IMG/VR virus record: IMGVR_UViG_3300029825_000423
Location: 1-61,329 of that record
DNA from: a virus
Strand: one strand, 5' to 3'
DNA length: 61,329 nucleotides
The notes beneath the pieces were generated by a model, which had not been told where the DNA came from, did not search any database, and saw only the letters and a list, made by a program, of their open reading frames with translations. Position numbers and translations under genes: made by a program. Positions 5,559 to 61,329 of the stretch are shown here, one piece after another; position 1 is the first letter of the stretch; every line of letters begins with the position of its first letter.

Positions 5559-5559
5559 A

Positions 5560-31961: not shown

Positions 31962-32048
31962 ATGAATCTGTTGTTAGCACTCGGAATATCGGCTGTGATA
32001 CTTATCGTCGGTGGAGCGATTATGACTTTACTCCGGGCGATGAAATGA
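31962..32048 (+). CDS. Hydrophobic mini-peptide (28 aa) coupled to integrase
   Basis: GGAGGAAGATTA-ATG precedes MNLLLALGISAVILIVGGAIMTLLRAMK. Its stop overlaps the integrase ATG. Confidence 0.35.
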   Translation: MNLLLALGISAVILIVGGAIMTLLRAMK

Positions 32049-32710
32049 ATTCTTTAGTACCATTCGGGGGCGGTGACCTACTCTTAAAAGAACACGTTGA
32101 TCACATTGAACTACACGAAGTAGGGAGCCTTAAACGTGCGTGTGATATTGCATACGAACGAAGCAAGCAAACTGAAAATTATAAATGGATCAGAGACAAA
32201 AACAAGCTTTTTCTCCATCTTATGTGGGCGACTGGTGCGAGGGTATCAGACGTTACGGAAATGAACACCACGAAAATAAATTACAGAGAAAAAACAATAA
32301 CCTTTCTGGTCCACAAGAGGAAAAGCAAGAAGGTTAAAACCGGGGGGGAATACTGGCACACAATTGGCTTGGATATGGAAACACTAACTATGTTAATGGA
32401 TTATATACAGACGTGGGAAATTAAAGGATTGCTCTTTCCTTCATTCAAAGGATCGGATAAGGCAATTACAAGGCAAGCAATAAACAAGCTTCTCAATGAG
32501 CTTACAGAACTTGTAGGAATGAGACGTATTCATCCCCACATGTTTCGCCATGGAATTGCCATGCACCTGCAAAGTCAGGGAGTGCCCGCCGAATTAATAG
32601 CTTACCACCTGGCACACAGTTCAACGGCAATTACCTTGAAGACATACGCAAGGATGGACGCGAAGCAGGAAAGAGCAATGTTTGAAAATCTGAATGTGAA
32701 ATTTTGGTAA
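32045..32710 (+). CDS. Tyrosine recombinase/integrase (Xer-like, 221 aa)
   Basis: Catalytic signature present: WATGARVSDV (Arg I), HPHMFRHGIAMHL (H-x-x-R), LAHSSTAITLKTYARM (His, Tyr). Confidence 0.9.
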   Translation: MNSLVPFGGGDLLLKEHVDHIELHEVGSLKRACDIAYERSKQTENYKWIRDKNKLFLHLMWATGARVSDVTEMNTTKINYREKTITFLVHKRKSKKVKTGGEYWHTIGLDMETLTMLMDYIQTWEIKGLLFPSFKGSDKAITRQAINKLLNELTELVGMRRIHPHMFRHGIAMHLQSQGVPAELIAYHLAHSSTAITLKTYARMDAKQERAMFENLNVKFW

Positions 32711-39557: not shown

Positions 39558-40991
39558 TCAATTATTTTTCTTTCGAATGTTAATCACCGGTTTATATTCA
39601 ATACTCCTACCAGCTTTACTTTCCTGCCGTTTCTTCTCTGCAATTTCATCGGAATAATACAACGGAGACGGAACTTTCATGCACCGTTCATCCGGACTGC
39701 AGACACAAAGACCCCGCAACGAAACCCCCTTCGGAAAACCCAAGTTATCAATAGCGTTCAGCCTTTCGCATGTCGGCACTTTCATACTTCTATAATAACT
39801 TTCGAATAAATTACTTTTTCTTGCATTCCATCTGTCAGCAAGCATGTTAAACCAATCGAACGCTTCTTCTTCTTCTATACCCATTTGCCCCAAGTATGAA
39901 CAGAACACGGCCAATGCCCTTGTCGCGCCTTCTCCGCATTCATCTAACTCAAACAAGTTTTTCATGCACGGTGCCCATTTTTCATAACCTATCGGTGTTT
40001 CTGACATCTCAACTTCTCTGCCGTCCATCCTGCTTATTGCAGATCTTCTGTTTTTGTAAGAGTGTTCGAGATACGGCTTAAAGACTTTGTTAAGAAATTC
40101 GGTCCCGTCGTCATACTCCATATACCACTTTTCCCCTTTGGCAATTACCGAGTCACTAAGCGGAATTGTCGCCTCTTCAAAGTCTATCTCGATCTTATCC
40201 GGATTCAACGGAACTACAGCATAATCTAAACTCTTATGTACGCTGTAGATTGTCTTAAACACTCTCTGAGAGCCGTTTAGTTGGTCAGGCTTAACTTTAC
40301 CTATATGTTGCGGAAACGCCTTAAAAAACGATTCTCGCATGTCTCCGATGAAGCAGTCAAAGGCGTCTAAGAAAGTCAGTAACATCATGTCCCATTCTTC
40401 GGAATCTCTGAATCTGTCGAAATACTTTTCAAATGCCTTATGATGCAACATTACATATATTCCACCACCCGAATACAAAACGTAAACAGAATTCGGCAAG
40501 TGTTCGCGAAGAATATTTACAAAATACTGCGCCATGTCTTCTACAGCTTGTTTTACATCAGGTGAATGAATATCACATCCATGTTCTTTGTCGATGTCAA
40601 TTCCAAGAGTGTACCCCATAGTATAAGCCCTGCTTAGCATCGGGCCATCGGCTTTGTCCACCTTCTTGTAATCCACGTCATAAATTTCTTTATCGAAAAC
40701 ATTTAAGGTCCAGTACAACGTCCGGCACTCTGTCACCGCATTAAAATAATCTTTTCTGCTCGACAGATCGATTTTTTTCTTTGCTTTCCTGCTTCCCGGG
40801 CGTAGGTTATACCAGTCCATTGAATCTTTTAGCTCCCCCGTTTCCCTGTCAACGTAAGCGCATGGAGTGAATTTCATTCCAGCCCTACTAAAATTCCCAT
40901 CAGTTGAAATCCTTGTAATTGCCTCGACAATTTCAGGACGTTTATAATGTTCTCGTATATCTTTCTGATTAAGCACATTCCCCACCCACAA
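39558..40991 (-). CDS. Archaeo-eukaryotic primase (PriS-like catalytic domain fused to Cys-rich C-terminal domain)
   Basis: Motif I is LGIDIDK and motif II is YSGGGIYVMLHH. The C-terminal region has several Cys (PCMKN, DECGEG, CERL, CVCSPDERC) that could bind a metal or Fe-S cluster. The start is TTG 40991 or GTG 40976. Confidence 0.75.
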   Translation of the reverse strand: MWVGNVLNQKDIREHYKRPEIVEAITRISTDGNFSRAGMKFTPCAYVDRETGELKDSMDWYNLRPGSRKAKKKIDLSSRKDYFNAVTECRTLYWTLNVFDKEIYDVDYKKVDKADGPMLSRAYTMGYTLGIDIDKEHGCDIHSPDVKQAVEDMAQYFVNILREHLPNSVYVLYSGGGIYVMLHHKAFEKYFDRFRDSEEWDMMLLTFLDAFDCFIGDMRESFFKAFPQHIGKVKPDQLNGSQRVFKTIYSVHKSLDYAVVPLNPDKIEIDFEEATIPLSDSVIAKGEKWYMEYDDGTEFLNKVFKPYLEHSYKNRRSAISRMDGREVEMSETPIGYEKWAPCMKNLFELDECGEGATRALAVFCSYLGQMGIEEEEAFDWFNMLADRWNARKSNLFESYYRSMKVPTCERLNAIDNLGFPKGVSLRGLCVCSPDERCMKVPSPLYYSDEIAEKKRQESKAGRSIEYKPVINIRKKNN

Positions 40992-41460
40992 GGCAATTAC
41001 AGAATTCTACATTTTGATTAAGCACGTTGTAAAAACGTTCTTCGTATGTCTTCTTTCCGTGAATTTCAGCTATCTTGTGTATAGCACAGTGACATTCGTG
41101 GCAGAGTGGCAGAAGGTTCGCAATGTCATTTGTTCCCCCTTCCGCGCGTGGTACAATGTGGTGTATCTCTAAATTTTCAGGATTTCCACATATAGCACAT
41201 TCTCCCCCGAAAATGTATATTACGCGCTTCTTCATTACTCCCCTAACATCCCGGTATTTGTACCCTTTGTGCTCGTTCTTCCGGTTGAGAATCAGTTGAT
41301 CACTTTCTTTTCTGTTCTCGATATAATTCCTGTAATGGAATCTCACTTTATTGAGTGACGTTCCTATGTTGAACCGACACAAAAACATTTTCGATTGTTC
41401 GACGCTTGTTTCTTTCTCGTTCACTGATTTTCCCCCAAAAATCACTTGAACTTTAAACAA
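40969..41460 (-). CDS. HNH endonuclease
   Basis: Contains CAICGNPENLEIHHIVPRAEGGTNDIANLLPLCHECHCAIH. The likely start is GTG 41424, after GGGGGAAAATCA. Confidence 0.85.
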   Translation of the reverse strand: MFKVQVIFGGKSVNEKETSVEQSKMFLCRFNIGTSLNKVRFHYRNYIENRKESDQLILNRKNEHKGYKYRDVRGVMKKRVIYIFGGECAICGNPENLEIHHIVPRAEGGTNDIANLLPLCHECHCAIHKIAEIHGKKTYEERFYNVLNQNVEFCNCLVGGECA

Positions 41461-45891: not shown

Positions 45892-46596
45892 TTAGTTCAT
45901 TAATTTAGGCGCCATCATATACCAGACGGCCATGTTTTCATTAATCATTTTTACAATCATAGGCAAATCAGCCCCATAAGAAATCTCAACTTCTCCTTCA
46001 AATAGTGAAAGTGTCCTGATGTAAGATTCTGCATACATCGAAGCGGTTTTATTGAAGTTTCCACCCACATTAACAGGGAACTTAAAAGAGTGCCCCAACT
46101 CAGATTTTGCCTTAAATGTCACGGTGTCATTTTCAGTTTCAATTACAACTTCCCCGCCTACGATCTTAATACCCTTCAGTGCCGACCTGACGAATTCCGT
46201 GTCAATGTCAAACGTCACAGTAAACGGAATAGTTGGAATTCTGCATGTACGAATACCGTTAACGTCGAGCAAAGGCAATTCAAACGTCATCCCATCAAAT
46301 GATATCTGAATTCTACCATCTAGTTGATCGAGCGTGACTTCCGACAATTTCCCAGCAGACCCAATGATTTCATTTAATTTGACGAGATCAACACCAAGCA
46401 ACGCACCGTCGCCGCATTCATACTCAATAAACGCAGTCTTGTTAATGGTTACATCCATCACGGCCACGCTTGCTTCGTCTATAATCCGAGAATGGATGTT
46501 TTCTTTCGTTATCTCCAAACGCGCATCGTTCCCAACTTCCATAAGCATTTTAACGAACTTCTTAAGATCGTTTGCCATTAGAGCAATTTTATACAT
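45892..46596 (-). CDS. pcn: PCNA sliding clamp homologue 1
   Basis: 234 aa, PCNA-like throughout: FVKMLMEVGNDARLEITKENIHSRIIDEASVAVMDVTI..GVDLVKLNEII, with a C-terminal MMAPKL (compare LAPRV). Confidence 0.8.
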   Translation of the reverse strand: MYKIALMANDLKKFVKMLMEVGNDARLEITKENIHSRIIDEASVAVMDVTINKTAFIEYECGDGALLGVDLVKLNEIIGSAGKLSEVTLDQLDGRIQISFDGMTFELPLLDVNGIRTCRIPTIPFTVTFDIDTEFVRSALKGIKIVGGEVVIETENDTVTFKAKSELGHSFKFPVNVGGNFNKTASMYAESYIRTLSLFEGEVEISYGADLPMIVKMINENMAVWYMMAPKLMN

Positions 46597-46659
46597 GTTA
46601 TTCCCCCATTATTCATCTAACATACTAAGCTTTTTTTCTATATAAAGTTATCTACATTC

Positions 46660-47475
46660 TTAATTTTCTATGCCGCGAACCGTATTGTAAATCTTAGTCC
46701 CTTTGTCTTTGCCAGCTAGGGTTTTCATCTCTTCTAAGTCCATGTTCACAAACTCGAACACGGTAAATTTTCTTTTGCTTAACATCTTTGAAATTGTCTT
46801 CGCTCCGAGTCCTGGCACATTACAAAGCATTTTCAACACAGTGTCTTCATTGCATGGTTTTTTAATTGAAAGTGTTGTATGACAGTATTTAGTAATATAA
46901 TTTAATAAGTCTTCCAGCACAACTGGAAACATATCTTCTCTTTCAAACTGCCTTACGTGTATCCCGAGTTGCCGCCATGTTTCAAGGTGACCTGTTAATT
47001 TGTCAAACCTCAATACGCTTGCGTCCTCATTCGCGAAGTTGCGTACATAAAAAAACTTTTCTTTCTGCATAATGGTTAGGCGACCTTCGACGAATAGTGC
47101 GACATCTTCAAAAATATTGTATGCTTCTGGCAATTTCCAAGTCAAATCATCAATTGATCCGGCGATATCGTTAAGTGTTTTGTATTCGACCCCGATGTCT
47201 ACATACTTTCCCTGGTAAACCCCTTGTATCCAGTAATCGCACCTTTCAAGATTATCAATCATGACCTCTGCCCCTCTCTGCATGAAATAATTTGCGACCT
47301 GCCAGATTCTCGGGCGCTGTTTTGTGAGCCGGATAATTTCGTCATTCGAATATTCAGAAATCAGCTTGCCTTTGATTATTGCGCTTGGAACTTTCCGATT
47401 TTGCACCAACGCAGATTGCTCCCGTGTATCGCAGGTAATCAAAAGTTCGCTGAATTTCTGTTCAAGGTCTGCCAT
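46660..47475 (-). CDS. XPF/Mus81/Hef-type ERCC4 nuclease with C-terminal HhH
   Basis: Contains CDTREQ, CDYWIQG, GVEYKTLNDIAGSIDD (ERK-type motif) and LCNVPGLGAKTISKML (helix-hairpin-helix). Confidence 0.75.
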   Translation of the reverse strand: MADLEQKFSELLITCDTREQSALVQNRKVPSAIIKGKLISEYSNDEIIRLTKQRPRIWQVANYFMQRGAEVMIDNLERCDYWIQGVYQGKYVDIGVEYKTLNDIAGSIDDLTWKLPEAYNIFEDVALFVEGRLTIMQKEKFFYVRNFANEDASVLRFDKLTGHLETWRQLGIHVRQFEREDMFPVVLEDLLNYITKYCHTTLSIKKPCNEDTVLKMLCNVPGLGAKTISKMLSKRKFTVFEFVNMDLEEMKTLAGKDKGTKIYNTVRGIEN

Positions 47476-47484
47476 GTAATTGCC

Positions 47485-47850
47485 TCACACTTTGATATTC
47501 ACCATGGATTCAAATTCTGGATGAGCTCGCATAATCGCTACAGCAAATTCGTAATTAAGTTCATCGAATTCAAGTTCTTTGAACACCTTATTTATTCCAA
47601 ACGGAAGCGGTATGGTCAAAGCCCCACGTACTTCAATTAAACCAAGCTCTTCATGAAAAGCCATCTCGTCTTCCAATTGCATTTCGCCCGGACACTGGGT
47701 TTTTGCGTAATCACCCGTCACGAGTGCAAAATAAACATGCCCCAGTGCAGTTATTCGAATACCACCGTTTTCTTTTTCTTCAAGCAAGCCATTATCTGAA
47801 AATTTAATGTCAAATGGTCCGGTTACTACTCCCCCATTAATCATAACCAA
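47485..47850 (-). CDS. Hypothetical protein (121 aa)
   Basis: ORF in an operon. Its stop lies in junction GTGAGGCAATTACATGG. Confidence 0.55.
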   Translation of the reverse strand: MVMINGGVVTGPFDIKFSDNGLLEEKENGGIRITALGHVYFALVTGDYAKTQCPGEMQLEDEMAFHEELGLIEVRGALTIPLPFGINKVFKELEFDELNYEFAVAIMRAHPEFESMVNIKV

Positions 47851-48607
47851 TCAACTCCTTTTCTACTAAAACGTCTATTATATGTCTGTCATAAGTGAGA
47901 TTTTCAACCCACTGCCCCTTTATCGAGTCAAGGCAAGTACAAACATATTCCGTTTTCAATCCAATCTTCTTTTCTACCTGCAGAGTCACGTCTATTGTAT
48001 GTTGAACTTTCATTGAAAGTGCCGGGACTTCGCCAATTACCTTATCTCCCCTGTACAGGTCTTTCATCTGGCCAGTTACAATAAAGAGACCATCGTTTTC
48101 CTCTGCCCAACCAATCCCGCCTTCGATGAAAGCCCGTTCGACGTCGTTCATTGCCCCCCATTCTTCAGGCATTGGGTTGTCTCTATCGGGGTGTAACATT
48201 CTCCAATACTCCAAACCCATGTTATTGCGAAGAATCGGAGTTGCCCCGTCATAAATCAGAACGTCGAAATCACTTCTTTCAAGAATATTATTTATAATAT
48301 TGTCCTTCAAGTTAAGGAAGCTCTTAAGATAATCAGGTCCGTTCTTAAGAACAATCTTCATGTCTCTTGACGTTATTTTACCCACTTTTGTTATGTCGGT
48401 CTTCGATTCTTCTTTCCTGAGCATCACGGGGATTATTTCGAATCTGTCCGCGACTTCGGGAAAGAGAAGTTTTACTGTTTTTTCGGTTTTGTTTTCGAAA
48501 TCAAGAACAACCGCTTTTAGCTCAAGATCGTTTACGAGTTTGCACACACCGTATGTTTTACCTGTGCCAGTTGTGCCAGATACAGAAATTGAGTTAGTTA
48601 GTTTCAT
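47837..48607 (-). CDS. AAA_24/Sak4-like RecA-core ATPase
   Basis: Walker A is VSGTTGTGKTYG and the Walker B-like segment is DVLIYDGATP. Size and layout resemble phage Sak4-type recombination ATPases. Confidence 0.7.
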   Translation of the reverse strand: MKLTNSISVSGTTGTGKTYGVCKLVNDLELKAVVLDFENKTEKTVKLLFPEVADRFEIIPVMLRKEESKTDITKVGKITSRDMKIVLKNGPDYLKSFLNLKDNIINNILERSDFDVLIYDGATPILRNNMGLEYWRMLHPDRDNPMPEEWGAMNDVERAFIEGGIGWAEENDGLFIVTGQMKDLYRGDKVIGEVPALSMKVQHTIDVTLQVEKKIGLKTEYVCTCLDSIKGQWVENLTYDRHIIDVLVEKELIGYD

Positions 48608-49377
48608 TATACCGCCCTGATAACCGAATCATCCCCAACTCTAGGAGCACATAGCATCACATAATTTTCTGACTTCTCGCCGTTCCCATCTATTCTCACA
48701 GGGTTATCGACGTTTATACTCACAGTGCACGTTTTAACGAGTTTCCCCAGTGCTTTCATGTGTTTTCCAGTGAGGATATCAATAGAAAACATAGATCTCT
48801 GTTCATATCCAGGGGAGACAAAGTTACTGATTTTATTTCTCAGTTCAACTATTACGTTATCTCCATACAACACATGATCGGCAATTACAATATTATTCCC
48901 GAATGCCCCAATTACCTCAAGATCAGATATCAATTCCTTGTAACATATTTCGAATGACGTTTTAAATTCGATTTTCGGAATTCTTGGTATTCTATCATCG
49001 GGTTCAATTGGAATCGCGAACGTTGCGTCAACACATGTAAACACCGCACGTTTTCTATCGTCCCCACCTTCAACACTTCCATACAGATTTTTCGGCTTTT
49101 CTGGATCAACTTTCTCGAGCGTTACGAAATTACCACGCAGTTTTTTAACGACACGTTCCAGTTTGCGGACATCTACCGTTATGTCCGTATCAAGCGGTAC
49201 ATTATATTCACGGAAAGCGGTCTTTGGAATTGTCGCACCAAATATAAACACGTTTGCTGGATCAACCGTAAAAATTCTCATTTCATCTGGCCGAAGACAC
49301 ATTGTAACTTCATCTCTCATGTTTGCAAGAACACCAAGCAGGTTTTTAAAATAGCTAAGATCCATTGTAAATATCAT
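48607..49377 (-). CDS. PCNA sliding clamp homologue 2 (divergent)
   Basis: ATG follows GGGGGAAAACAA. The protein reads FKNLLGVLANMRDEVTMCLRPDEMRIFTVDPANV..ITVDVRKLERVVKKL.. with a C-terminal YVMLCAPRVGDD, matching the archaeal PCNA LLAPRVEE end. Confidence 0.7.
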   Translation of the reverse strand: MIFTMDLSYFKNLLGVLANMRDEVTMCLRPDEMRIFTVDPANVFIFGATIPKTAFREYNVPLDTDITVDVRKLERVVKKLRGNFVTLEKVDPEKPKNLYGSVEGGDDRKRAVFTCVDATFAIPIEPDDRIPRIPKIEFKTSFEICYKELISDLEVIGAFGNNIVIADHVLYGDNVIVELRNKISNFVSPGYEQRSMFSIDILTGKHMKALGKLVKTCTVSINVDNPVRIDGNGEKSENYVMLCAPRVGDDSVIRAV

Positions 49378-49411
49378 TTGTTTTCCCCCTAAAAACATTT
49401 ATTTTGGGGTG

Positions 49412-50164
49412 TTACTCCCCAAGAATCCCTTCGACGAACCGATACTTTCCGTCAGGTGATTTTTCAAGAACGCCGTCCGTAACAAGGGCATTCAGGTATT
49501 TTGTCTTGTTTGGCATTGCCGTATACTGCCTCTTGACATTTTCAGGTGCTTCAAGATTTTTTGCGTAGTCATTCGTCGCTTTTATTGTGTTGGGCAGTGT
49601 GAACGGCTCACTTCCAAATTCTTTCAGGCACTCGAAATACCCTGCCTTTATCTCTTCCTCGTTAATCGGGACTTCGGGGGCAGGTGCCTTGACCTCAGTA
49701 ATTGCGGCAGAAGCACTCCCCCCGACCCCGGCAACTGTCCAGACATCGAAGCTTATTATCTTTGGCTGTTTTACAAGCTGCCCGTTCACGTTTACAAGCT
49801 CAGTATCTGTCTTGCTTGCAAAGCTCTTATGCTCAACTTCGAAACTCACTGTCTGCCCGCGTAGGTCCGGGGCAAATGCAACTTCCATTCTATCTACATC
49901 AATATCAATTGACACACCGACATTGACAAGTGACTCGAAGAACCTGTAAGCGTTGCTCCCATACTTCGGTGACGGACTTCCTTCATAATCTACCCAGTCC
50001 TTGTACTTAAGAGCGATCTTAAGGGCTGGATCCTCGGTTGTTGCAATTACAAGGCTTACGTCCTCCGTGAAATCGTTTTCCTCTAAAAAGTAGTCCGTTA
50101 CCCGATCTGTAAACGATTCGTCTCTTCTGAATTTTTTTCCTGGTTCGAGCTTAAGCTTTGCCAT
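49412..50164 (-). CDS. Hypothetical protein (250 aa; possible ssDNA-binding/recombination partner by position)
   Basis: Long ORF with RBS and no recognisable motif. The role is a guess from context only. Confidence 0.6.
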   Translation of the reverse strand: MAKLKLEPGKKFRRDESFTDRVTDYFLEENDFTEDVSLVIATTEDPALKIALKYKDWVDYEGSPSPKYGSNAYRFFESLVNVGVSIDIDVDRMEVAFAPDLRGQTVSFEVEHKSFASKTDTELVNVNGQLVKQPKIISFDVWTVAGVGGSASAAITEVKAPAPEVPINEEEIKAGYFECLKEFGSEPFTLPNTIKATNDYAKNLEAPENVKRQYTAMPNKTKYLNALVTDGVLEKSPDGKYRFVEGILGE

Positions 50165-52148: not shown

Positions 52149-52234
52149 TTAATTCACTCTTTAAAATAATTATTTTAGGAAGTAGAAAAGTTTATTAACC
52201 TTTAAAGCTTATTTTTTGCAGGGAGTTGATATAT

Positions 52235-53824
52235 ATGGACTTAATAATTGATCCAGAATTTAGAGATCTGATTCCTCCACTGACTGAAGAGGAATATAAC
52301 AGTCTTGAAGAAAATCTTTTAACTAACGGGTTTAACCCTGCCTTCCCTGTAATTGTCTGGAAAGGACAGAACATTATAGTGGATGGGCATAACCGTTACG
52401 GAATTTGCCAGAAACACGGAATTGCCTTTGATTACATCGAGCAGGAGTTCGCTTCGAGGTACGATGTTAAACAAGAAATGTACAAGATACAGTTTGATAG
52501 AAGAAACATGAATAGTAGAACTAAAACTTATCTTGTAGGTAAAAGATATTTAATGGAAAAAATGGAAGAAGGAAATCCAAATGGGTTCGGTGCAATCAAC
52601 CAACGGGCGCAAAATGCGCCCGTTGGTAGAACAAGAGAAAAAATAGCTGCACAACTAGGAATAAATCACTCGACTGTGCTAAGAGCAGCCGAATTTGCGC
52701 TTGCGGTAGATAAAATCGTCTCTGTAACTGGAATAAAAGTAAACGATATCCTAGTCGGAAAGATAAAAGACCCGATGGATGATATTAAAGACCTCGCTAG
52801 AAACCTAGATGATGTAATAAAAGACGCAATTTACAGGGTATTATCCGGTGAAAACCTAACTTTAAAAATGGCTCTCGCGGCAATTACAAGAGAAGAACTC
52901 GAAAGAAAAACAAGAGAAGCCGAAAAGAAAAGAAAGCAAATGGAAGAAGAATTTAAAAAATCAAGAGAAGAAGAAGACCAGAAAGAAAGGGAAAGACTCA
53001 GACAAGAAAGAGAAAACAAACTCGCGCAGGAAAGAGAACGTATAGAAAAGGAGAAAGAAGAACAAGAACAGCGCAGACGCGCAGAGATCGAAAAAGAAAT
53101 TGAAAAGAGAAGGAAAGAAGCAGAGGAAAGAGCAAAGCACGCAGAAGAACGAGAAAAGTTAAGAAAGGATGCAGAAGAACATGAAAGAATCGAAAAAGCA
53201 AAACTCGAAGCTGAAATTAAAAGACTACAAGAAATCAAACAAAAGAAACTTGAATCAGCTATGCTTGAACAAAAACGAATGGATGAAGAAATACTCAGAA
53301 AGGCAAGGATTGAACGGGAAAAGCAAGACAGAGAAATAATTGAAAAGACAGTAAAGGTCAGCGTTCCAGTAACAGATTACGACCAGTACATAAAAGCGGC
53401 TTATACAATAATGGGGGAAATAACACTTAATGCTTGCAGACCAAAAAAGGCAGACAACGCAGACAACATTTACATAATAAACACTCAAATCGTACACAAT
53501 GATCCAGAAACACTTAATCAAAATTGGATTGGTAAAGTGTGGCTTGACCTGCTTGATTCAGAAAAAGATTCAAAGTGTTACATTGAGAAATTGGTATCTC
53601 GGTTTGTCGAAGGGGGAATAACTGAAGCCTTTGTGATTGCCAGAAACACAACTGATTCCGAATGGTTTAAGCTCTGTTCACAGAAAGCAAGCGCGGTTGT
53701 ATTTCCAACAAAGACAATGACAGGAAAGTTAAAAAGCCATGCTCTTATTTACTTCGGGGACAAGGCAGAAACCTTTATGAAAGAATGTGAAAAGTTCGGA
53801 TGGGGGACAATATTAAAAAAATAA
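52235..53824 (+). CDS. ParB N-terminal domain / HTH / long charged coiled coil / degenerate Dam-like domain fusion
   Basis: ParB/Srx-type segment DLIPPLTEEEYNSLEENLL..IVDGHNRY, then HTH REKIAAQLGINHSTVLR. About 150 aa of E/K/R-rich coil follow. The C-terminal NWIGKVWLDLLDS..FVIARNTTDSEWF..ALIYFG resembles phage Dam (W.G..W.NPPYS..PARTDT.WF), but with NPPY replaced by DLLD. Confidence 0.75.
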   Translation: MDLIIDPEFRDLIPPLTEEEYNSLEENLLTNGFNPAFPVIVWKGQNIIVDGHNRYGICQKHGIAFDYIEQEFASRYDVKQEMYKIQFDRRNMNSRTKTYLVGKRYLMEKMEEGNPNGFGAINQRAQNAPVGRTREKIAAQLGINHSTVLRAAEFALAVDKIVSVTGIKVNDILVGKIKDPMDDIKDLARNLDDVIKDAIYRVLSGENLTLKMALAAITREELERKTREAEKKRKQMEEEFKKSREEEDQKERERLRQERENKLAQERERIEKEKEEQEQRRRAEIEKEIEKRRKEAEERAKHAEEREKLRKDAEEHERIEKAKLEAEIKRLQEIKQKKLESAMLEQKRMDEEILRKARIEREKQDREIIEKTVKVSVPVTDYDQYIKAAYTIMGEITLNACRPKKADNADNIYIINTQIVHNDPETLNQNWIGKVWLDLLDSEKDSKCYIEKLVSRFVEGGITEAFVIARNTTDSEWFKLCSQKASAVVFPTKTMTGKLKSHALIYFGDKAETFMKECEKFGWGTILKK

Positions 53825-53833: not shown

Positions 53834-54997
53834 GTGGAACAATTGACAGTATTTAAAAAAATAATCGGAAGTAGATGTATTGTAATTGTGGTTGGCAATC
53901 ACAAAGGGGGTTGCGGAAAAACAACCACATCTTTTGGAATTGGGGTAAATGCCAGTAAACAAGGTAAAAGAGTACTTTTCATAGACAATGACCAACAGGG
54001 GACGCTAGGAAAGCAATTCAAGATAGACGGAAACAACAAGAAATACAAAGACCATAGATTTTCAAAGATATACGAATCAATGTCAAACATAACCGGAGAA
54101 ATACCAGTAGTACCTTACACAATACACTTTAACAAAAACACAGGAGGTTCAATATCAATTCTGCTTGGAGACGCAGACTTAAAAGATATAGTTGAAAAAG
54201 CAGAAGAGTACTTCGGCGGAGAGGCGATTGTAACAGAAAAGTTCAGGACAATTATGAATGTTTACATGCAATACTTCGATTATATAATATTCGACACCAC
54301 ACCAATTGTAGACAAAATAAAAAGCTGTAAACACTCTTTGAGTATTGCTAACAATGTATTCATTCCATTTGATGAAATAGACGCAGTTGATGAAATAAAT
54401 CAGACCAGAACCGCAATAAAAGCAAACAGCAAACATCAGCCTAACATAAGGTTTGTATGCACAAAATACACGGTTGACTACATCGAGGAAGCAAGAGAAT
54501 TTAACAGAAGATGTTTAGAAAATAAACTTCCAGTTCCAGAGAAGCCAGTAAAATTTAAACATTATCCTTGGACACCAGGCAGAGACGAGAAACGATGTAC
54601 CAATTACAGGTTTATGCTAAAAACATTTCCTAATAACATGTGTAAAATCGGAATCCCATTTAAAGTAGACATCGAGAGGCACACGTACTTAGGATCAAGC
54701 AAAGAAAACAGAGCAATAATAGACGAAATGTGCAAAGATCTTTTACTTTATGCGTCTTCAAGTGCAAAGGAATTTTGTGAAAACCTATGTGATGATGATG
54801 TTTGGAGTAAAAAACTTGATATGTTAAACGGTTACGTTGGAATTGTTCGAGATATGAAAATAGAAAAAATGGACATTGGATTAAACGAAGTTCTCGGTAC
54901 TACATTCGATGAAGGAAACTATTTACATGTAGAATTTGAAAAAGAAGCAGTAAACGAAAGAGCTATTTTAGAACGTAGAGCTAGATTTGATAGGTGA
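53834..54997 (+). CDS. parA: ParA/Soj-type partition ATPase
   Basis: Deviant Walker A is VVGNHKGGCGKTTTS, followed by FIDNDQQGT and IIFDTTP. Confidence 0.85.
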   Translation: MEQLTVFKKIIGSRCIVIVVGNHKGGCGKTTTSFGIGVNASKQGKRVLFIDNDQQGTLGKQFKIDGNNKKYKDHRFSKIYESMSNITGEIPVVPYTIHFNKNTGGSISILLGDADLKDIVEKAEEYFGGEAIVTEKFRTIMNVYMQYFDYIIFDTTPIVDKIKSCKHSLSIANNVFIPFDEIDAVDEINQTRTAIKANSKHQPNIRFVCTKYTVDYIEEAREFNRRCLENKLPVPEKPVKFKHYPWTPGRDEKRCTNYRFMLKTFPNNMCKIGIPFKVDIERHTYLGSSKENRAIIDEMCKDLLLYASSSAKEFCENLCDDDVWSKKLDMLNGYVGIVRDMKIEKMDIGLNEVLGTTFDEGNYLHVEFEKEAVNERAILERRARFDR

Positions 54998-55193: not shown

Positions 55194-55949
55194 ATGGATA
55201 CTGTTAGTAAAATCGGAGGGAGCATGAGCAAGAATGAAATATTTAAACAGGAAGCACAGATTTCAAACGAAGAATTTGAACAAGACATTGAGATATTCTA
55301 CCGTGGGATTGTCGGGATTACAAAGAAGTTAGGGCAAACATCAAGCGACGGCGCAAGATGGGTATTCGATATGTCATTTAGAGGAAAGAGAAGAGAAATC
55401 ACCATTGATAACGTCGCGCTTATGATGGGGCCAACCGCCTTTAACAACCTGTTTAAGTCATGGTTCGGTATTCAGTTGCCGTACCTACTCCGGAGAAAGC
55501 CAGCGAAGGGTGACGTCAATTACTGGGACAAGTTTCAGCAGGTAATTGAAGAAATGTGTACCGAAGAAGATCCAGAAGATAGTACGGAATGGATTGAGGC
55601 AAGCAGGTTAATAGAGAATATAGCAAAGTTCAACATAACAGATGACAAAAAGGCATGGTATGATACAACTTCTTCCGATAGGTGCCTTTTGAGAACGGAA
55701 GATAAAGATGGCGTGGTACACTATTGCGTTAAGCCAGACTGTGTGGCCACTGTAATGAAAGACATTGGAATAAAAATACCAATCGGTAAAATGGGAGAGA
55801 CTTTAAACATTCGAAACATGAAAAGGAAAACAAACCCGGCAATCAGGGTAGGACAGAAGGTAACGAAAGCATGGTGGATTACGGCGGAGTGTATAGACGC
55901 AGTTACACCAGACGAAAACGACGACGATAGCGACAATGTGAATTTGTAA
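55194..55949 (+). CDS. Hypothetical protein adjacent to iterons (candidate iteron/centromere-binding protein by position)
   Basis: 251-aa ORF, with a likely start at ATG 55224 after GGAGGGAGC. Its stop codon lies inside the first GTAAC iteron. The function is inferred from position only. Confidence 0.6.
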   Translation: MDTVSKIGGSMSKNEIFKQEAQISNEEFEQDIEIFYRGIVGITKKLGQTSSDGARWVFDMSFRGKRREITIDNVALMMGPTAFNNLFKSWFGIQLPYLLRRKPAKGDVNYWDKFQQVIEEMCTEEDPEDSTEWIEASRLIENIAKFNITDDKKAWYDTTSSDRCLLRTEDKDGVVHYCVKPDCVATVMKDIGIKIPIGKMGETLNIRNMKRKTNPAIRVGQKVTKAWWITAECIDAVTPDENDDDSDNVNL

Positions 55950-56220
55950 CTGGGTGTAACGGGGTGTAACCGGTGTGTAACGGGTCTTGTAACGGGTCTA
56001 AAATCGACTTTGTAATTGCCACACAACGACAACGGGGGAACTCAGAACACTACTTTTTTGTGTGTTTTTTCTCCTTGTAACGCGCGCACGGGGGGTAAAA
56101 AATTTTTTCCTGACCCCCCGTTACACCCGTTACACCGGTTACATTCGACTGAAAGTATTTTCCCGCTGTCGAAAATTTGTAACGGGTCTGGAGGCATCGA
56201 CCCGTTACACCCCGTTACAA
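55944..56220. repeat. Iteron cluster: 12 copies of TGTAACGGG / CCCGTTACA (origin of replication or partition centromere)
   Basis: Five direct copies have GTAAC at 55946, 55956, 55966, 55977 and 55989 (10-12 bp spacing), plus one at 56077. Three inverted copies have GTTAC at 56120, 56129 and 56138. A perfect 11-bp inverted pair lies at 56178-56188 / 56199-56209, with one more copy at 56214. An A6T6 tract flanked by G6/C6 lies at 56090-56119. Confidence 0.85.
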
Positions 56221-56294
56221 AAGTTGACATACGCACATTAAGACTTTAAAATAAAAAACGAGCCATACGCGCGCGAAATGGGCGGGCTGTGTTT

Positions 56295-56469
56295 GGCAAT
56301 AACAAAGACAAACTTTTTATATGAGTACGGAAAACACCGAAAAGTAAAAACCTCTATGAAAGTATTCAACGTGTACCAAAAAGAGATACTTCGCTAACAC
56401 GCGCTCTATGAAAGTATTAAACCGTAAACGGTAGACACACGCAAAATTGGAACACGGCAATAACAAAGA
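56295..56469. repeat. Nested direct repeats upstream of the helicase gene
   Basis: GGCAATAACAAAGA occurs at 56295 and 56456. CTCTATGAAAGTATT[C/A]AAC occurs at 56352 and 56404. Confidence 0.6.
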
Positions 56470-56500
56470 TTAACCATGAAATTGCACAAGGAGAAAAAGA

Positions 56501-58087
56501 ATGGTGACAATTACAAAGTATGACGGTGCCCCAGGAACGGGCAAAACATGGACATTAACACAGGACTTTAAGACGGCTTTAAGCAGCGGGGTTCCTCCTG
56601 AAAATATTTTATTCACACAGTTCCGGAAGGAAGCAGCAAGCGACGCGAAAGGGATTCTTTCTACCGCAAGCGGAGTAAAGGAAAGTCGGTTATGCAATGT
56701 AAGGACCTTTCACGGTGAATGCCTCTCTCTGTTAATGAGAAACGGAATTGTAGACGTTAAGCAGGAAGGTGGATATCTAATTTCAAGAAAAGACTTAAAA
56801 GAATTCGGGATAAAATACGGGTATTCGTTCAATACAAAGGATAGTGCAGAAAAAGACAAAATGGATCAGCTAACAACTTTTTACGCTTACTGTAAAAACA
56901 ACATGGTGCCTCCGACAAAAGGAGCAATGAAAGTCTATAGCAAAGAAGTAATTCCATTCAGTCAGAAAAAAGAATTTTATGACAATTACGAAGATTATAA
57001 GCAAGAAAAGGGCAAAATAGATTGGTCAGACATGCTTAATCTTGTACTCGAAAACGGAATTATGACAGATTGCACAGTCCAAATGTACGACGAAGCACAG
57101 GACATGACCCCGATCATGTACGAGCTCTCTAAAATGTGGGGTGACGACGCGGAAACTGTTTACTATGCCGGAGATCCTCTGCAGACACTTTACTCATTCA
57201 TGGGAGCAAGTCCAGAGCACTTAATGAATACAGAAGGTGAGCTTGTTGTCCTTCCGGTCAGCCACAGACTCCCGGCGAATGTCTGGAAAAAAGCCGCATG
57301 GATGGTAACTGACAGAAACAAATACAGAGCTCCGAAAATCGAGACACCGAAAGAAGACGGGCAAATGATTGTTGTTGATTACAAGGGCCTTTCAACTTAC
57401 CTGACAAAGCGATTCGCGAAATACTTTGCACCCGACGAAACCGCTTTTCATCTTGTCAGGACAAATTACCAGGGCCATGCAATTGCAAAGATCCTCGCTG
57501 AAATGGGAACGCCGTTTGGCGGTATTTGTGGTTGGACTCATGACGAAATCCAGCTTTACCATGCAATCGCAAAGATCAAAGAGGGCCGGACACCAACGGT
57601 AACAGAGTACAAAAAATTAATTGACCATGTTAAGAAAACTGATCTGCAGTACACTGGAAAAAAGGAAGACTTAAAATCGTTCTTCGAGAACAATGTGCAG
57701 CAGGTAAACGCGCTGAATAATTGGTATCTTTCAAATTCATTTGTTCAGGCAGTCAGGGCAGGGAACCCGGGCGAACATTTGACAAATGCGGATTCAATGC
57801 TGAAATTGAAAATAAATGGAATGTTAAAGAACGGAGTTGCGGCAATAGACGAAAGCAGGATTAACAGAACACAGATATTGACTATACATGGAGCAAAGGG
57901 ATTAGAGGCAACACATGTATTTCTTCATGCTGCAGTGCCCCCGATTATAAAACAGAGCATGTTAACGACGGAAGGTAGGGCAAACGAAGCTTATGTGTGG
58001 TATGTGGCAATCACAAGGACCATGAAAAATCTGATAGTTGTCAGTTATCCGGGTAAAAATTATCCGATTCCGAGAATGTGTGCGTAA
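56501..58087 (+). CDS. UvrD/Rep-type SF1 helicase
   Basis: Contains DGAPGTGKT (Walker A), MYDEAQDMTP (motif II), GDPLQTLYSF (III) and LTIHGAKGLEATHVFL (VI). Confidence 0.85.
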   Translation: MVTITKYDGAPGTGKTWTLTQDFKTALSSGVPPENILFTQFRKEAASDAKGILSTASGVKESRLCNVRTFHGECLSLLMRNGIVDVKQEGGYLISRKDLKEFGIKYGYSFNTKDSAEKDKMDQLTTFYAYCKNNMVPPTKGAMKVYSKEVIPFSQKKEFYDNYEDYKQEKGKIDWSDMLNLVLENGIMTDCTVQMYDEAQDMTPIMYELSKMWGDDAETVYYAGDPLQTLYSFMGASPEHLMNTEGELVVLPVSHRLPANVWKKAAWMVTDRNKYRAPKIETPKEDGQMIVVDYKGLSTYLTKRFAKYFAPDETAFHLVRTNYQGHAIAKILAEMGTPFGGICGWTHDEIQLYHAIAKIKEGRTPTVTEYKKLIDHVKKTDLQYTGKKEDLKSFFENNVQQVNALNNWYLSNSFVQAVRAGNPGEHLTNADSMLKLKINGMLKNGVAAIDESRINRTQILTIHGAKGLEATHVFLHAAVPPIIKQSMLTTEGRANEAYVWYVAITRTMKNLIVVSYPGKNYPIPRMCA

Positions 58088-58310: not shown

Positions 58311-58898
58311 GTGAAAGCTGGAGATGTCTTAAGAGTCTTGCACATCTCAAGACCAACACTATACAGATATGCCGAAGCTGGATACATTGATAGAAATAAG
58401 CTTCCAAATGGGAAGTATGATTATGTTGATGAATCCGTTTATGCATTTCTAAATAAAGATGTTAAACGCAAACATGTAATTTATTGCAGGGTTTCGACTT
58501 CAAAACAGAAAGCGGATTTGGAAAATCAGGTTGAGTTTCTCAAAAGCTGGTCTTTCAACTCAGGCATAAAAATTGATGCAGTCTACAAAGATGTTGCATC
58601 TGGCATTTCATTTGAGAAAAGAAAAGAATTCTTTGAAATGCTTGATGAGATACTTGATTTCAAGGTTGAAACTGTAATAATTGCATACAAAGACCGATTA
58701 AGCAGAATAGGGTTTGAGTTGTTTTCAAACTTGTTTGCTAAGTTCGGGACAAAAATAATAGTTGTTTCAGAAGCAGGAAATAAGAAATTAGATTCAGAAG
58801 AAATCTTTGAGGAAATAATTTCTTTGTTGCACTGCTACAGTATGAAGCACTACAGCAAACGAAAAAACCCAAAATCATTGGAAATCGAGGTGGAATAA
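58311..58898 (+). CDS. tnpA: IS607-type serine recombinase transposase
   Basis: MerR-like HTH VLRVLHISRPTLYRYAEAG plus resolvase catalytic motif VIYCRVSTSKQKADLENQ. Confidence 0.9.
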   Translation: MKAGDVLRVLHISRPTLYRYAEAGYIDRNKLPNGKYDYVDESVYAFLNKDVKRKHVIYCRVSTSKQKADLENQVEFLKSWSFNSGIKIDAVYKDVASGISFEKRKEFFEMLDEILDFKVETVIIAYKDRLSRIGFELFSNLFAKFGTKIIVVSEAGNKKLDSEEIFEEIISLLHCYSMKHYSKRKNPKSLEIEVE

Positions 58899-58899
58899 C

Positions 58900-60135
58900 A
58901 TGGCACTTGTGACTAGAACTGAACAAATCCAATTCAATTCTGAAACTATTTCAGCTCTAGCTCACGCTTCTAAAAATTTGTACAATGCAGGAAACTACCT
59001 AATGAGACAAAGATTCTTTGAGAATGATAGGCTCTACAGGGAAACAGGACAGAAAGGTGAAGGAATTTGGTACAAGCAGCTTTACCCAATGTTGAAAGAC
59101 ACAGAGGACTACAAAGCCTTACCAGCTCAAACCTCACAGCAAGTTTTAAAGCTACTGGAGAAGAGTTGGAAAGCCTTCTTCATGGCTTCCAAAGCCTTTG
59201 CTAAGTCACCTGAGAAATTCTTAGGAAAACCAAAGCCTCCAAAATATAAAAACAAAGATGGGGAACACATCTTGATTTTCACTAACCAACAGTGCAAAAT
59301 CAAAGACGGTATCTTGAAGTTTCCGAAGATTGCAGATCTTGAATTAAAAACAAGACTCAAAGACATTGATCTTAGAGAAGTTAGAATAATTCCAAATGCA
59401 AATAAGTACACCTGTGAAATTGTCTACAATAAGACAGTCACTGATAATGAAATCAACTCTAACAGAGTTCTAGGCATTGATCTCGGTGTTCGTAACATTG
59501 TAACTATTGCAAACAACTTTGGTGCAAAACCAATTGTTGTTAAGGGCAACACTGCAAACAGCATGAACCAATACTACAACAAAGTAAGAGCTGAGCTACA
59601 GAGCAAGTACGATTTGCAGGGAATTAGAACAGGTAGCAAGAAAACAAAACTAGATTGGAAGCGTAACAATAAGGTTAAAGATTATTTCCACAAGCTAAGT
59701 AAACGAATTGTTGACTATGCAGCAGCTAACAACGTAAAAACCATAATCATTGGTAAGAATGAGAACTGGAAACAAGAAGTTAACATGGGAAAGAAGCTAA
59801 ATCAGAAATTCGTAATGCTTCCACTAGCAAAGCTCATAGAAATGATTCAGTACAAAGCTCAGGAAAAAAGCATAGAAGTAATGCTTCAGGAAGAAAGTCA
59901 TACTTCAAAGTGCAGCTTCTTGGATCTTGAACCAATTGAGCACAGAGAGAAATACATAGGGAAGAGGATCAAAAGAGGAATCTTCAAAAGTGGAAAAGGA
60001 ATTCTGATTAATGCAGACGTAAACGGAGCATTGAACATAATCAGGAAAGCAACTCCAAAAGCATTTGCAGACGGAGTAGAGGGTGTGGGGTTACACCCAA
60101 AGAGATATTTAATCACATCTTTTGAATATATTTGA
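58900..60135 (+). CDS. tnpB: TnpB (OrfB/IS1341-type RuvC-like RNA-guided nuclease)
   Basis: GIDLGVRNIV (RuvC-I Asp), LQEESHTSKCS (RuvC-II Glu and zinc-finger start), INADVNGALNIIRK (RuvC-III Asp). 411 aa. Confidence 0.9.
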   Translation: MALVTRTEQIQFNSETISALAHASKNLYNAGNYLMRQRFFENDRLYRETGQKGEGIWYKQLYPMLKDTEDYKALPAQTSQQVLKLLEKSWKAFFMASKAFAKSPEKFLGKPKPPKYKNKDGEHILIFTNQQCKIKDGILKFPKIADLELKTRLKDIDLREVRIIPNANKYTCEIVYNKTVTDNEINSNRVLGIDLGVRNIVTIANNFGAKPIVVKGNTANSMNQYYNKVRAELQSKYDLQGIRTGSKKTKLDWKRNNKVKDYFHKLSKRIVDYAAANNVKTIIIGKNENWKQEVNMGKKLNQKFVMLPLAKLIEMIQYKAQEKSIEVMLQEESHTSKCSFLDLEPIEHREKYIGKRIKRGIFKSGKGILINADVNGALNIIRKATPKAFADGVEGVGLHPKRYLITSFEYI

Positions 60136-60560: not shown

Positions 60561-61329
60561 TTATCTTAAAACTGTCCACTTCTTACCATATTTCCAGAAC
60601 GTCAATGCGGAAACAAAATTAATTTGTCTGTAGAGCATCATTAAAAATGTCCATTTGACACTTTTTATAAATCTGTATTCGTTCAGGAAATATAGAAACA
60701 TTGTAATTGCAGACAAAGTGAGGAAATGTTCTGTGAAACTTGCGCTGAACACGAATGCTGAAAGTACTGCAGTTCTGTAATAAATTGTCAGCGATTCGAC
60801 AAGTGGAACGTATCTTCCAGTGTGTTTCATTACCGAGTAATATCCGCTTACCCACCGGTTACGCTGGATAAATAACGCTTTTAATCCAGGCGTTGCGTAT
60901 GTTTTGATAACAGAGCTCGAAAGTTCTATTTTCCAGTTGTTTTTAATCCCTATTTGTGTTAGTGCCATATCTTCGCCTTTTACGTGGGCCGGGATTCTGT
61001 TTTCAATTAGATGTTTTCTTTTAATTGCGAATCCGGCGCCGCTTACATTATTAAGATAATTTAGATTTCTGTGTAACCAAGGTCTTGCAATTCCGATTCC
61101 AATATCATATTCTAGTTTTTCAAGCTTGCTAAGTGTGGTTTCGTTTGCGATCACTTCGATTACAGTTCCAACAAGATCCGCACCGTTTAATATTTTGTCA
61201 ATCACATCGGAATTGTCCACTGAAATTGTATCACAGTCAACGATTAATACGTTTTCATTGTGAGCGAGTAGAGCTCCGTAATAAATCGAATCGTTTTTGC
61301 CGCGACTAAATTTCGAGTGGTCCTTTCTG
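60561..61329 (-). CDS. Family 2 glycosyltransferase, C-terminal part (5' end continues at 281..1 after circularisation)
   Basis: The frame reads ..VDCDTISVDNSDVIDKIL..GAGFAIKRKHL..QRNRWVSGYY (GT2 Q-x-x-RW-like motif), then TM helices. It is open to the window end and overlaps the 99-bp repeat. Confidence 0.8.
   Translation of the reverse strand, partial: RKDHSKFSRGKNDSIYYGALLAHNENVLIVDCDTISVDNSDVIDKILNGADLVGTVIEVIANETTLSKLEKLEYDIGIGIARPWLHRNLNYLNNVSGAGFAIKRKHLIENRIPAHVKGEDMALTQIGIKNNWKIELSSSVIKTYATPGLKALFIQRNRWVSGYYSVMKHTGRYVPLVESLTIYYRTAVLSAFVFSASFTEHFLTLSAITMFLYFLNEYRFIKSVKWTFLMMLYRQINFVSALTFWKYGKKWTVLR
61231..61329. repeat. 99-bp terminal direct repeat (copy 2), identical to 1..99
   Basis: Same as copy 1. 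A length of 99 is typical of an assembler k-mer overlap rather than a biological terminal repeat. Confidence 0.95.

Follow-up and report, generated by a model that had tools for sequence, protein, structure and literature searches.

The 61,329-bp virus record IMGVR_UViG_3300029825_000423 (the window, by which we mean the whole stretch of DNA analyzed) contains a dense array of short repeats in the non-coding DNA between the gene for a 251-aa protein (55194..55949, + strand) and that for a UvrD-like superfamily 1 (SF1) helicase (56501..58087, +). With moderate confidence, we read this array as the core of a replication origin, for which the 251-aa protein, labeled OBP here as a putative origin-binding protein, would be the cognate initiator that loads the SF1 helicase; the array is probably also the operator of the helicase promoter. 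The initial annotation, made from the sequence alone, had proposed either a replication origin or a parS-like centromere. The origin is favored by a conserved gene cassette, by covariation of the repeat word with OBP, and by the homology of OBP to a primase domain, whereas a centromere as the primary function is disfavored by the finding of ParA in just two lineages.

Copies of the repeat were scored as matches to TGTAACGGG, or to CCCGTTACA in inverted orientation, with no more than one mismatch. Twelve such copies lie in 55945-56219, at the positions first reported for them. The five direct copies (TGTAACNGG; 55945..55996, +) start at 55945, 55955, 55965, 55976 and 55988, with start-to-start distances of 10, 10, 11 and 12 bp, and the first, TGTAACTGG, contains the TAA stop codon (55947-55949) of the OBP gene. 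A T-rich stretch (T6...T5/T6) at ~56054-56074 is a possible archaeal-type transcription stop for that gene; no bacterial-type intrinsic terminator was found. An isolated direct copy, TGTAACGCG (56076..56084, +), runs into a CGCGCGC box (56081-56087), and a CGCGCG box is kept at the equivalent position in the related lineages L001, L004, L005 and L010. The palindromic core G6-T-A6T6-CCTGA-C6 (56090..56119) comes next, and three inverted copies (CCCGTTACA, CCCGTTACA and CCGGTTACA; 56117..56143, - strand) start at 56117, 56126 and 56135, a spacing of exactly 9 bp. The array closes with a convergent unit (56178..56219) of one direct and two inverted iterons: the inverted pair TGTAACGGGTC (56178-56188) and GACCCGTTACA (56199-56209), separated by a 10-bp spacer, and a final inverted copy at 56211-56219. 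This unit lies directly 5' of the promoter-like element of the helicase gene and is a probable operator and second assembly site.

The clustering is far from what would be expected by chance. There are 19 matches in the whole 61-kb window, as against 8.5 ± 3.3 in shuffled sequences, and 12 of the 19 fall within 277 bp where ~0.04 would be expected; the other seven are at chance level. Neither Tandem Repeats Finder nor a second repeat finder revealed a comparable non-coding array elsewhere in the genome. Three other regions were considered as rival origins, the AT-rich regions at 24.0-24.7 kb and 9.5-10.1 kb and the skew minimum at 50.6-51.8 kb, and were rejected, all being without a repeat array. 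The locus contains no tRNA, and an Rfam scan of it gave no family.

Genomic contexts were recovered for lineages with OBP identities from 93% down to ~25%. In all ten lineages with enough downstream DNA (L001, L003, L004, L005, L010, L014, L034, L035, L036 and L039, in addition to the window), the OBP gene is followed by a gap of 146-580 bp and then by the UvrD-like helicase gene, and this order persists down to ~30% helicase identity. The closest relative is L010, with OBP 93% and helicase 94% identical and, by alignment, a near-identical non-coding region. The gap is organized by a conserved grammar, '>>..[A/T tract]..<<< .. > <<', which each lineage writes with its own 6-9-bp word. Its first half consists of direct copies, a CGCGCG box with an A-run/T-run or G7..C7 palindrome, and three inverted copies at exactly 9 bp; after a spacer, its second half has one direct copy, 10-18 bp, two inverted copies, and a promoter-like A/T box before the helicase gene. 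The direct copies start at the OBP stop codon in close relatives, and in some distant ones inside the 3' end of the OBP gene or further downstream.

The most conserved feature of this grammar is the inverted triple, which is found at 9-bp spacing in the window and in L010, L001, L003, L012, L004, L014, L034, L035, L036 and L038. In L039 the triple is spaced at 8-9 bp, and in L005 it is visible by eye, an exact-word scan recovering just two of the three copies. The '> <<' unit is kept in L010, L001, L003, L012, L004, L005 and L036, while L038 and L039 have its mirror image. The five direct copies had been described as helically phased, which describes their 10-12 bp spacing in the window well; the trait conserved in the relatives, however, is contiguity at 9-10 bp, and exactly 9 bp for the inverted triple.

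Across about eleven lineages, some ten different words occur. The word is TGTAACGGG in the window, L001, L010 and L011, TGTCCACCC in L003 and L012, TGTCCC in L004, TGTCTC in L005, TGTCCGTAG in L014, TGTACGGGG in L034, TGTAAGGGG in L035, TGTACGGG in L036, GGTGTTACA in L038 and TGTAACCC, mirrored, in L039. In the longer loci, the 8- and 9-bp words are essentially confined to the gap between the OBP and helicase genes.

These words appear to follow OBP, not the helicase. L001 and L004 have helicases that are 92% identical, OBPs that are 57% identical, and different words; L003 and L004 have OBPs that are 88% identical, helicases that are 83% identical, and TGTCC-type words in both. Pairwise identities show the helicase to be better conserved than OBP in 29 of 36 pairs, nor does the word go with similarity in the upstream orf132. 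This covariation is the best, though indirect, support for OBP as the probable reader of the iterons. As the word covaries with OBP, the protein and its array behave as one exchangeable specificity module, by means of which related elements could coexist in one community without cross-talk. Two irregularities were seen among the relatives. In L034 (5122-7790) the UvrD-like helicase is called as two pieces, an N-terminal one of 150 aa and a C-terminal one of 264 aa, ~1.4 kb apart, which may reflect an intein, an intron-like insertion or a mobile element. L013 has tandem OBP-family genes, a 126-aa open reading frame (ORF; 108-488) matching the N-terminal half, and then a full-length 252-aa copy (652-1410).

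OBP has two alpha/beta domains and belongs to a family with 7 close homologs and 48 representatives at the 50% clustering level. Neither the single sequence nor the 41-member family matched Pfam, PHROG, NCBIfam or PDB sequences, and tblastn against phages returned nothing. A scan of genome contigs gave no integrated copies, and scans of viral contigs with distant single proteins gave nothing. An AlphaFold2 model based on a 41-sequence alignment, which replaced a model from eight sequences with a predicted local distance difference test score (pLDDT) of 74, has a confident two-domain alpha/beta fold (pLDDT 88). The BFVD structures that match it with E < 0.01 are all primases or a ring helicase, among them the primase of Dinoroseobacter phage R5C (E 1.3e-6) and another phage primase (E 7e-5). 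When the OBP family was compared by hhalign to a profile of 23 R5C-type archaeo-eukaryotic primases (AEP), OBP residues 50-241 aligned with primase residues 403-585 of 592 (Prob 95.3%, E 2.4e-8). This is the extreme C-terminal domain of the primases, following the AEP catalytic domain and a Cys cluster. The homology is seen in profile-profile comparison only; hhalign of the OBP profile against the single primase sequences of R5C and Bhz20 gave nothing.

The phage primases in question adjoin helicases of the same family. The helicase of the window is 23-26% identical to SF1 helicases of phage replication modules with an adjacent primase, including R5C gp077, and in phage R5C the gp077 helicase gene is preceded directly by the primase gene gp076, which overlaps its start. 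Because the profile alignment matches the C-terminal domain of primases adjoining this helicase family, OBP appears to be a free-standing homolog of the phage AEP primase C-terminal domain. It was considered as an active AEP primase, and rejected for want of a DxD/His motif, and as an HUH nickase, and rejected for want of an HUH (HxH) motif and a conserved tyrosine. W111 and W227 are the only invariant residues in the 41-member alignment, and no tyrosine is invariant. With the AEP catalytic motifs, the HUH motifs and a conserved tyrosine all absent, we conclude that OBP is neither a primase nor a nickase.

The palindromic core between the convergent repeats is a candidate bending or melting site. 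Its A6T6 segment (56097-56108) is the sole A≥5T≥4 tract in the 61-kb genome, and A-run/T-run or G7..C7 equivalents occur at the matching place in L001, L003, L004, L005, L012, L035, L036 and L038. The region 56070-56150 has hairpin or cruciform potential, with a folding free energy of -15.6 kcal/mol (z -3.3). The element that had been suggested to act in unwinding is a unique and conserved A-tract at the center of a palindrome, but the tract measures just 12 bp, and the locus does not rank with the least stable parts of the genome.

The helicase (528 aa) is of the Rep/UvrD/PcrA-like SF1A type, with matches to Pfam UvrD-helicase and UvrD_C, to the PHROG DNA helicase family (E 5e-61) and to NCBIfam Rep/PcrA/UvrD; in the PDB it is most similar to E. 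coli Rep, UvrD and PcrA. Its gene is preceded by a promoter-like element, TTGACA-N17-TAAAAT (~56224..56253, +), which begins 4 bp after the end of the last three iterons and is kept in L001, L010 and L011. The element agrees with consensus at 11 of 12 positions; in an archaeal reading, TTTAAAATA at 56245-56253 would be TATA-like. Between this element and the gene is a long leader (56254..56500, +) with 87% mean column identity in four relatives, which makes it as conserved as coding DNA. It contains a ACGCGCGCG box (56267-56275), copies of a dispersed 13-mer (56295 and 56456; see below) and copies of CTCTATGAAAGTATT (56352 and 56404), and it has no Rfam match. The two CTCTATGAAAGTATT boxes start mini-ORFs of 8-13 codons, and a third box, TGAAAGTATT, is at 56150.

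A candidate primase also belongs to this set of genes. In L014, L035 and L036 a protein of 444-450 aa is encoded directly 3' of the helicase gene, and its homolog in the window, of 477 aa and 37% identical, is encoded elsewhere (39558..40991, -). Four members of this family share invariant YTxGIDID (DxD) and SGGGIYxxxHH motifs and a C-terminal Cys cluster, and three of the four weakly match PF04104 DNA_primase_lrg (PriL; best E 6e-4); the 477-aa protein has no Pfam match of its own. It looks like a PriS-PriL fusion primase of the AEP type, comparable to PolpTN2. Because the primase gene directly follows the helicase gene in L014, L035 and L036, we take the ancestral order to be OBP, iterons, SF1 helicase, primase; the primase would then have been relocated in the window lineage, 15 kb away. 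The 477-aa primase gene adjoins an HNH endonuclease gene (40969-41460, -).

The statement that no Rep/Orc/Cdc6 gene is recognizable holds for the known families, and no Orc1/Cdc6 gene was found among the neighbors with Pfam, PHROG or NCBIfam. The 251-aa protein is nonetheless the best candidate for an initiator, and a PriS-PriL-like primase is encoded at 39558-40991 (-). The locus lies within a neighborhood of replication genes that includes two PCNA-like genes, an ERCC4-HhH nuclease gene and ThyA.

A plausible sequence of events at the origin can be proposed from these features. OBP molecules would bind the 9-bp iterons, as the covariation suggests, in two convergent sets: in the first, the direct copies face the three inverted copies across the CGCGCGC / G6-A6T6-C6 palindrome, and in the second, one direct copy faces two inverted copies across the 10-bp spacer. 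Given this anatomy, head-to-head assembly of OBP oligomers may bend or distort the palindrome with its unique A-tract. OBP would then recruit the adjacent SF1 helicase onto the distorted DNA, as its homology and the strict synteny suggest, and the PriS-PriL-like primase and two PCNA-like clamps would engage the host polymerase. Since the last convergent unit abuts the helicase promoter, the OBP-iteron complex probably also regulates helicase transcription. The inverted repeats of the Rep operators of iteron plasmids regulate transcription in a similar way.

Several points weigh against an origin of this kind. The array and its uniqueness, the grammar, the covariation with OBP, the synteny and the homology are observed, but every mechanistic step beyond the repeats and their covariation, from binding and distortion to helicase loading and replication, is one that we infer. 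Helicases of the SF1A group usually require a nick or a 3' tail of single-stranded DNA, and since OBP is without a nickase motif (HUH or conserved Tyr), the proposed helicase loading is without direct precedent. The homolog of OBP, the C-terminal domain of the primases, is itself uncharacterized, and DNA-binding winged-helix proteins are matched only weakly in the PDB fold search (E ~0.03); these matches, to TcpK bound to oriT DNA, to SaPIbov1 Rep (8tch) and to Cch, are hints only. The locus has no long AT-rich unwinding element: its least stable windows of 12-80 bp reach z values of just 1.2-2.4, and AT richness in the genome peaks elsewhere (24.2-24.8 kb and 9.5-9.9 kb). A 308-aa P-loop/AAA+ protein (7371-8297) could be an alternative or additional initiator. 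The position of the array, just upstream of the helicase promoter, is equally expected of a pure operator.

The cumulative GC skew, which had been suggested as a check, has no inflection at 56.1 kb, and has little power here as it tracks gene strand. Its minimum at 51,160 is 5 kb from the array, which would count against an origin there, and the point opposite the array on the circle (25,485) lies 1.1 kb from its maximum at 24,374. Both extrema coincide with switches in gene strand, so that the skew cannot discriminate, and we judge it uninformative.

The 308-aa protein, the sole AAA+ candidate for an Orc1/Cdc6-type gene product, has a C-terminal helix-turn-helix (HTH) and weak DnaA-like PHROG, nSTAND3 and DnaI matches. 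Its gene is kept in the relatives, lying ~1.5 kb upstream of the OBP gene in L014 and ~12 kb from the array in the window. The protein may serve as a helicase loader, as a second initiator, or as an ATPase for packaging.

A bolder version of the origin interpretation is that these elements represent an undescribed type of archaeal viral replicon without Orc1/Cdc6, MCM or a nickase, in which a free-standing, primase-derived OBP would recognize the convergent iterons, distort the A-tract palindrome and load an SF1A replicative helicase on un-nicked duplex, and in which OBP and iterons would be swapped as an incompatibility cassette among genomes that are nearly identical otherwise. We offer this tentatively, as less likely than not.

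We regard it as unlikely that the array is an operator and nothing else, with the 251-aa protein a repressor or activator of the helicase promoter that perhaps terminates or regulates its own gene and has no role in initiation. The array always lies between the OBP and helicase genes, its last three iterons stop just short of a strong promoter-like element in an arrangement that is conserved, no extended unwinding element is present, and omega/ParR-type regulators are known to act at operators with several sites of short direct and inverted repeats. Twelve sites over 277 bp, with an A-tract palindrome between convergent sets, nevertheless far exceed the needs of a promoter, and the five direct copies are ~230-280 bp upstream of it. 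OBP is homologous to a primase domain and to no regulator family, and as the iteron word is not above chance elsewhere in the genome, there is no regulon. The fast joint diversification of the specificity and its cis site is typical of replicon or incompatibility determinants. An operator role is in any case compatible with the origin interpretation, and is already included in it.

A partition centromere of the parS/parC type, in which OBP would be the centromere-binding adaptor of ParA and the repeats the segrosome site, is quite improbable. The order of genes that had prompted it is correct: a 532-aa protein (52226..53824, +), ParA (53834..54997, +), the 251-aa ORF, the array and the SF1 helicase. 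The ParA-type ATPase (387 aa) matches Pfam AAA_31/CbiA, with NCBIfam ParA_partition below cutoff. The 532-aa protein has a ParB/Srx-like N-terminal domain, a coiled coil and a C-terminal domain of no recognized kind; it had been called ParB-like, but has no Pfam ParB match and no Pfam match at all. Its N-terminal half is homologous to that of a fusion of a ParB domain and an MT-A70 methyltransferase in L004 (36% identity, E 3e-32). In the window and in L003, parA is directly upstream of the OBP gene and the repeats follow, which is the classic parA-parB-parS order, and phased direct and inverted repeats of ~10 bp resemble ParR/parC and omega-type centromeres.

This association does not extend to the other relatives. 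Among the lineages examined, ParA and full-length homologs of the 532-aa protein occur in the window and L003 only, and parA next to the site is likewise restricted to these two, so that co-inheritance of the site and ParA fails. The array and OBP persist without ParA in L001, L004, L005, L010, L014, L034, L035 and L036, with no ParA present within 6-8 kb in L001, L004, L005 and L010 nor in the shorter flanks of L014, L034, L035 and L036; L010 has neither parA nor a ParB-like gene within 6 kb upstream, despite its near-identical array. The invariant partner of the array is the helicase. OBP is without similarity to ParB (HTH), ParR or ParG (ribbon-helix-helix, RHH) or AspA, and is homologous to a primase domain. 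The 196-bp spacer between parA and the OBP gene contains a GC hairpin and an AT palindrome resembling a separate promoter. The ParA proteins of the window and L003 are 33% identical, while flanking genes are 61-85% identical, which suggests that the ParA module is accessory and evolves separately. The ParA/ParB-domain pair thus appears to be an accessory neighbor or insertion, outside the conserved module, and ParA may make secondary use of the OBP-iteron complex in the two lineages that have it.

Two further features of the ParA region can be noted. The L003 homolog of the 532-aa protein (3771-6576) is interrupted: an insertion with an IS200-type Y1 transposase divides it into two ORFs. In the window, the 3' end of the 532-aa gene and the 5' end of parA lie between the arms of a perfect 15-nt inverted pair, CCTTTGTGATTGCCA / TGGCAATCACAAAGG (53628-53642 and 53893-53907). 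This pair, a variant of the dispersed 13-mer, has its second copy inside the coding region for the ParA Walker-A motif, and is possibly a regulatory or centromere-like site for the ParA module.

Finally, a recombination or packaging site (attP-like with arm-type integrase sites, or pac/cos-like) is very improbable: attP sites are also ~250 bp, with ~10-bp arm-type sites in both orientations and bent A-tracts, and L001 and L035 have tyrosine integrase genes close to the module, but the integrase gene of the window is 24 kb away (32045-32710), none occurs in the stretches examined of L004, L005, L014 and L036, the word covaries with OBP, itself a primase-domain homolog, and neither a tRNA-like core nor a terminase-like neighbor was found.

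The window is probably a virus or plasmid associated with Methanosarcina. Its first 99 bases match its last 99 exactly (1-99 = 61231-61329), and we therefore take it to be an assembled circle of 61,230 bp, with a G+C content of ~40%. The genes for two PCNA-like clamps (45892-46596, -, and 48607-49398, -) point to an archaeal element. They are part of a block that also encodes an ERCC4/HhH (XPF-like) nuclease, a small AAA_22-like ATPase and a 250-aa protein with no recognized family (46660-47475, 47837-48607 and 49412-50164, all -). The whole block (45892-50164) is kept in all close relatives and may be a virus-encoded set of clamps and clamp loader. Other genes of the window include those for an XPD-like helicase, ThyA, an anaerobic NrdD, a C5 methyltransferase and the tyrosine integrase (32045-32710). 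No capsid or terminase gene was identified in the window. A 1450-aa ORF (15818-20170), without a family match, has internal DNA repeats at 16992-18078 and 18662-19000 with periods of ~500 bp and ~130 bp, and its product is probably a repetitive structural or adhesin-like protein.

A clue to the host is provided by an IS607-type insertion (serine-recombinase TnpA and TnpB; 58311-60135) directly 3' of the helicase gene: a Methanosarcina sp. metagenome-assembled genome has seven copies of TnpB with 78-80% identity to the one encoded here (58900-60135). L005 carries the same insertion sequence at another location. IMG/VR lists the relatives as viral, and their source metagenomes are from anaerobic digesters or fermentations. 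A blastn search with 51.0-58.2 kb against phage and plasmid collections gave no match. In the phage collection, no homolog of the module was detectable for MetMV (PMC7164591), a similarly sized virus of Methanosarcina, and our literature search found no paper describing the OBP protein family or this origin.

The genome also contains a dispersed 13-mer, GGCAATTACAAAG, with 62 copies (at most two mismatches) in the window against ~2 expected. Close relatives have 66 copies against 2.5 (~30-fold) and distant relatives 11 against 0.8 (~14-fold); it is not enriched in sampled Methanosarcina chromosomal DNA or phage loci. Most copies run in the direction of the genes (36 sense, 15 antisense and 11 intergenic), and 27 of the 36 sense copies are in one frame, encoding A-I-T-K. 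The 13-mer is concentrated near the 5' ends of genes, many within ~120 nt of ORF starts or directly before the ATG; example positions are 1760, 22800, 24413, 27894, 56008, 56295, 56456 and 56506, and copies are also found in L001-L014. Four copies are in or beside the origin region, and the one at 56008..56020 (-) is inside an ~80-bp insert found only in some lineages, being kept in L001, L003, L010, L011 and L012 and absent in L004 and L005. The 13-mer is a candidate for a virus-specific promoter-proximal or regulator site, or for a Chi-like or polarity signal.

The kind of element described here is familiar: iterons beside an initiator gene, upstream of replication genes. What appears to be new is a putative initiator family without a Pfam entry that would link an uncharacterized primase C-terminal domain to origin function, a grammar conserved from 93% to ~25% protein identity with about ten words, the apparent pairing with an SF1 helicase in a methanogen-associated element, and the apparently modular swapping of OBP with its iterons. 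To our knowledge, the origins and initiators of methanogen viruses and plasmids are almost unknown, and Methanosarcina genetics depends on very few replicons. If the origin interpretation is right, the locus would provide a compact and tractable origin of ~280 bp with its cognate protein, and the new family (48 clusters at 50% identity) would tie the phage AEP primase C-terminal domain to the coupling of origin and helicase. It would also offer a natural panel of about ten matched protein/DNA specificities in which to study shifts of the recognition code, a test case for recruitment of an SF1 helicase to a duplex origin without a nickase, and candidate parts for new, mutually compatible Methanosarcina shuttle vectors.

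The array can be compared to several known systems. Rolling-circle double-strand origins share the SF1A partner, but the putative initiator here has no HUH/Rep_trans motifs, no catalytic tyrosine and no Pfam match. For the origins of archaeal Orc1/Cdc6 with their origin recognition boxes (ORB), the comparison was of layout: the array has inverted words around an A/T tract, but these are contiguous 9-bp units and not ORB elements of 12-35 bp. The ParR/parC and omega centromeres (type Ib/II) have similar ~10-bp direct and inverted repeats beside a Walker-type ParA, as is the case in this genome, but the array persists without ParA in most relatives and its presumed binder is not an RHH or HTH ParB.

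The SV40 origin has GAGGC pentamers for large T antigen and an AT tract, and oriS of herpes simplex virus 1 (HSV-1) has boxes I and II that are bound by the origin-binding helicase UL9. In these origins, as here, short head-to-head words flank a short bent A/T tract and palindrome, and an origin-binding function is coupled, here presumably, to a non-MCM helicase. In SV40 and HSV-1, however, the origin-binding domain and the helicase (SF3 or SF2) are in one polypeptide, the viruses are eukaryotic, and there is no homology. In the pri-rep-ori modules of the Staphylococcus aureus pathogenicity islands (SaPI), the origin is directly 3' of the initiator gene, sets of 6-8 bp iterons flank an AT-rich segment, and Rep and ori are matched in an island-specific manner. 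The location 3' of the putative initiator gene, the sets of short iterons about an A/T segment and the apparent matching of protein and word recur here, and SaPIbov1 Rep is among the weak structural matches of OBP noted above (8tch, E ~0.03). SaPIs have the iteron-binding domain and a ring helicase in one protein and encode the primase in a gene of its own upstream, whereas here the putative binding protein is free-standing and the helicase is of the monomeric SF1A type.

The bacterial iteron theta origins of RepA, RepE and pi also have repeats clustered by the gene of the cognate initiator, with a co-evolving specificity that is the incompatibility determinant, and with direct repeats for initiation and inverted repeats overlapping a promoter; beside their iterons they have an AT-rich unwinding element. 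They differ in the size of the repeats, which are 17-22 bp at ~22 bp there and 9-bp units at 9-12 bp here. The present system has, in addition, no sequence similarity to Rep_3 or winged-helix Rep proteins, SF1 in place of DnaB, a 12-bp A/T element and an archaeal host.

The pTN2-family plasmids of Thermococcales (pTN2 and pP12-1), for which a repeat-rich origin has been predicted directly upstream of the genes for an SF1 UvrD/Rep/PcrA-type helicase and the PolpTN2 primase-polymerase (PMC2926602), can be likened to the window by layout. No separate small initiator gene upstream of the repeats has been described for pTN2, and the prediction of its origin drew on GC skew and AT richness, while in the window the skew does not indicate the array; the primase, moreover, has moved 15 kb away in the window lineage. 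Both are nevertheless archaeal mobile elements without Orc1/Cdc6 and MCM, in which repeat-rich non-coding DNA lies directly 5' of an SF1 helicase gene, and in which a divergent AEP primase with a PriL-like part adjoins the helicase, as it does in L014, L035 and L036.

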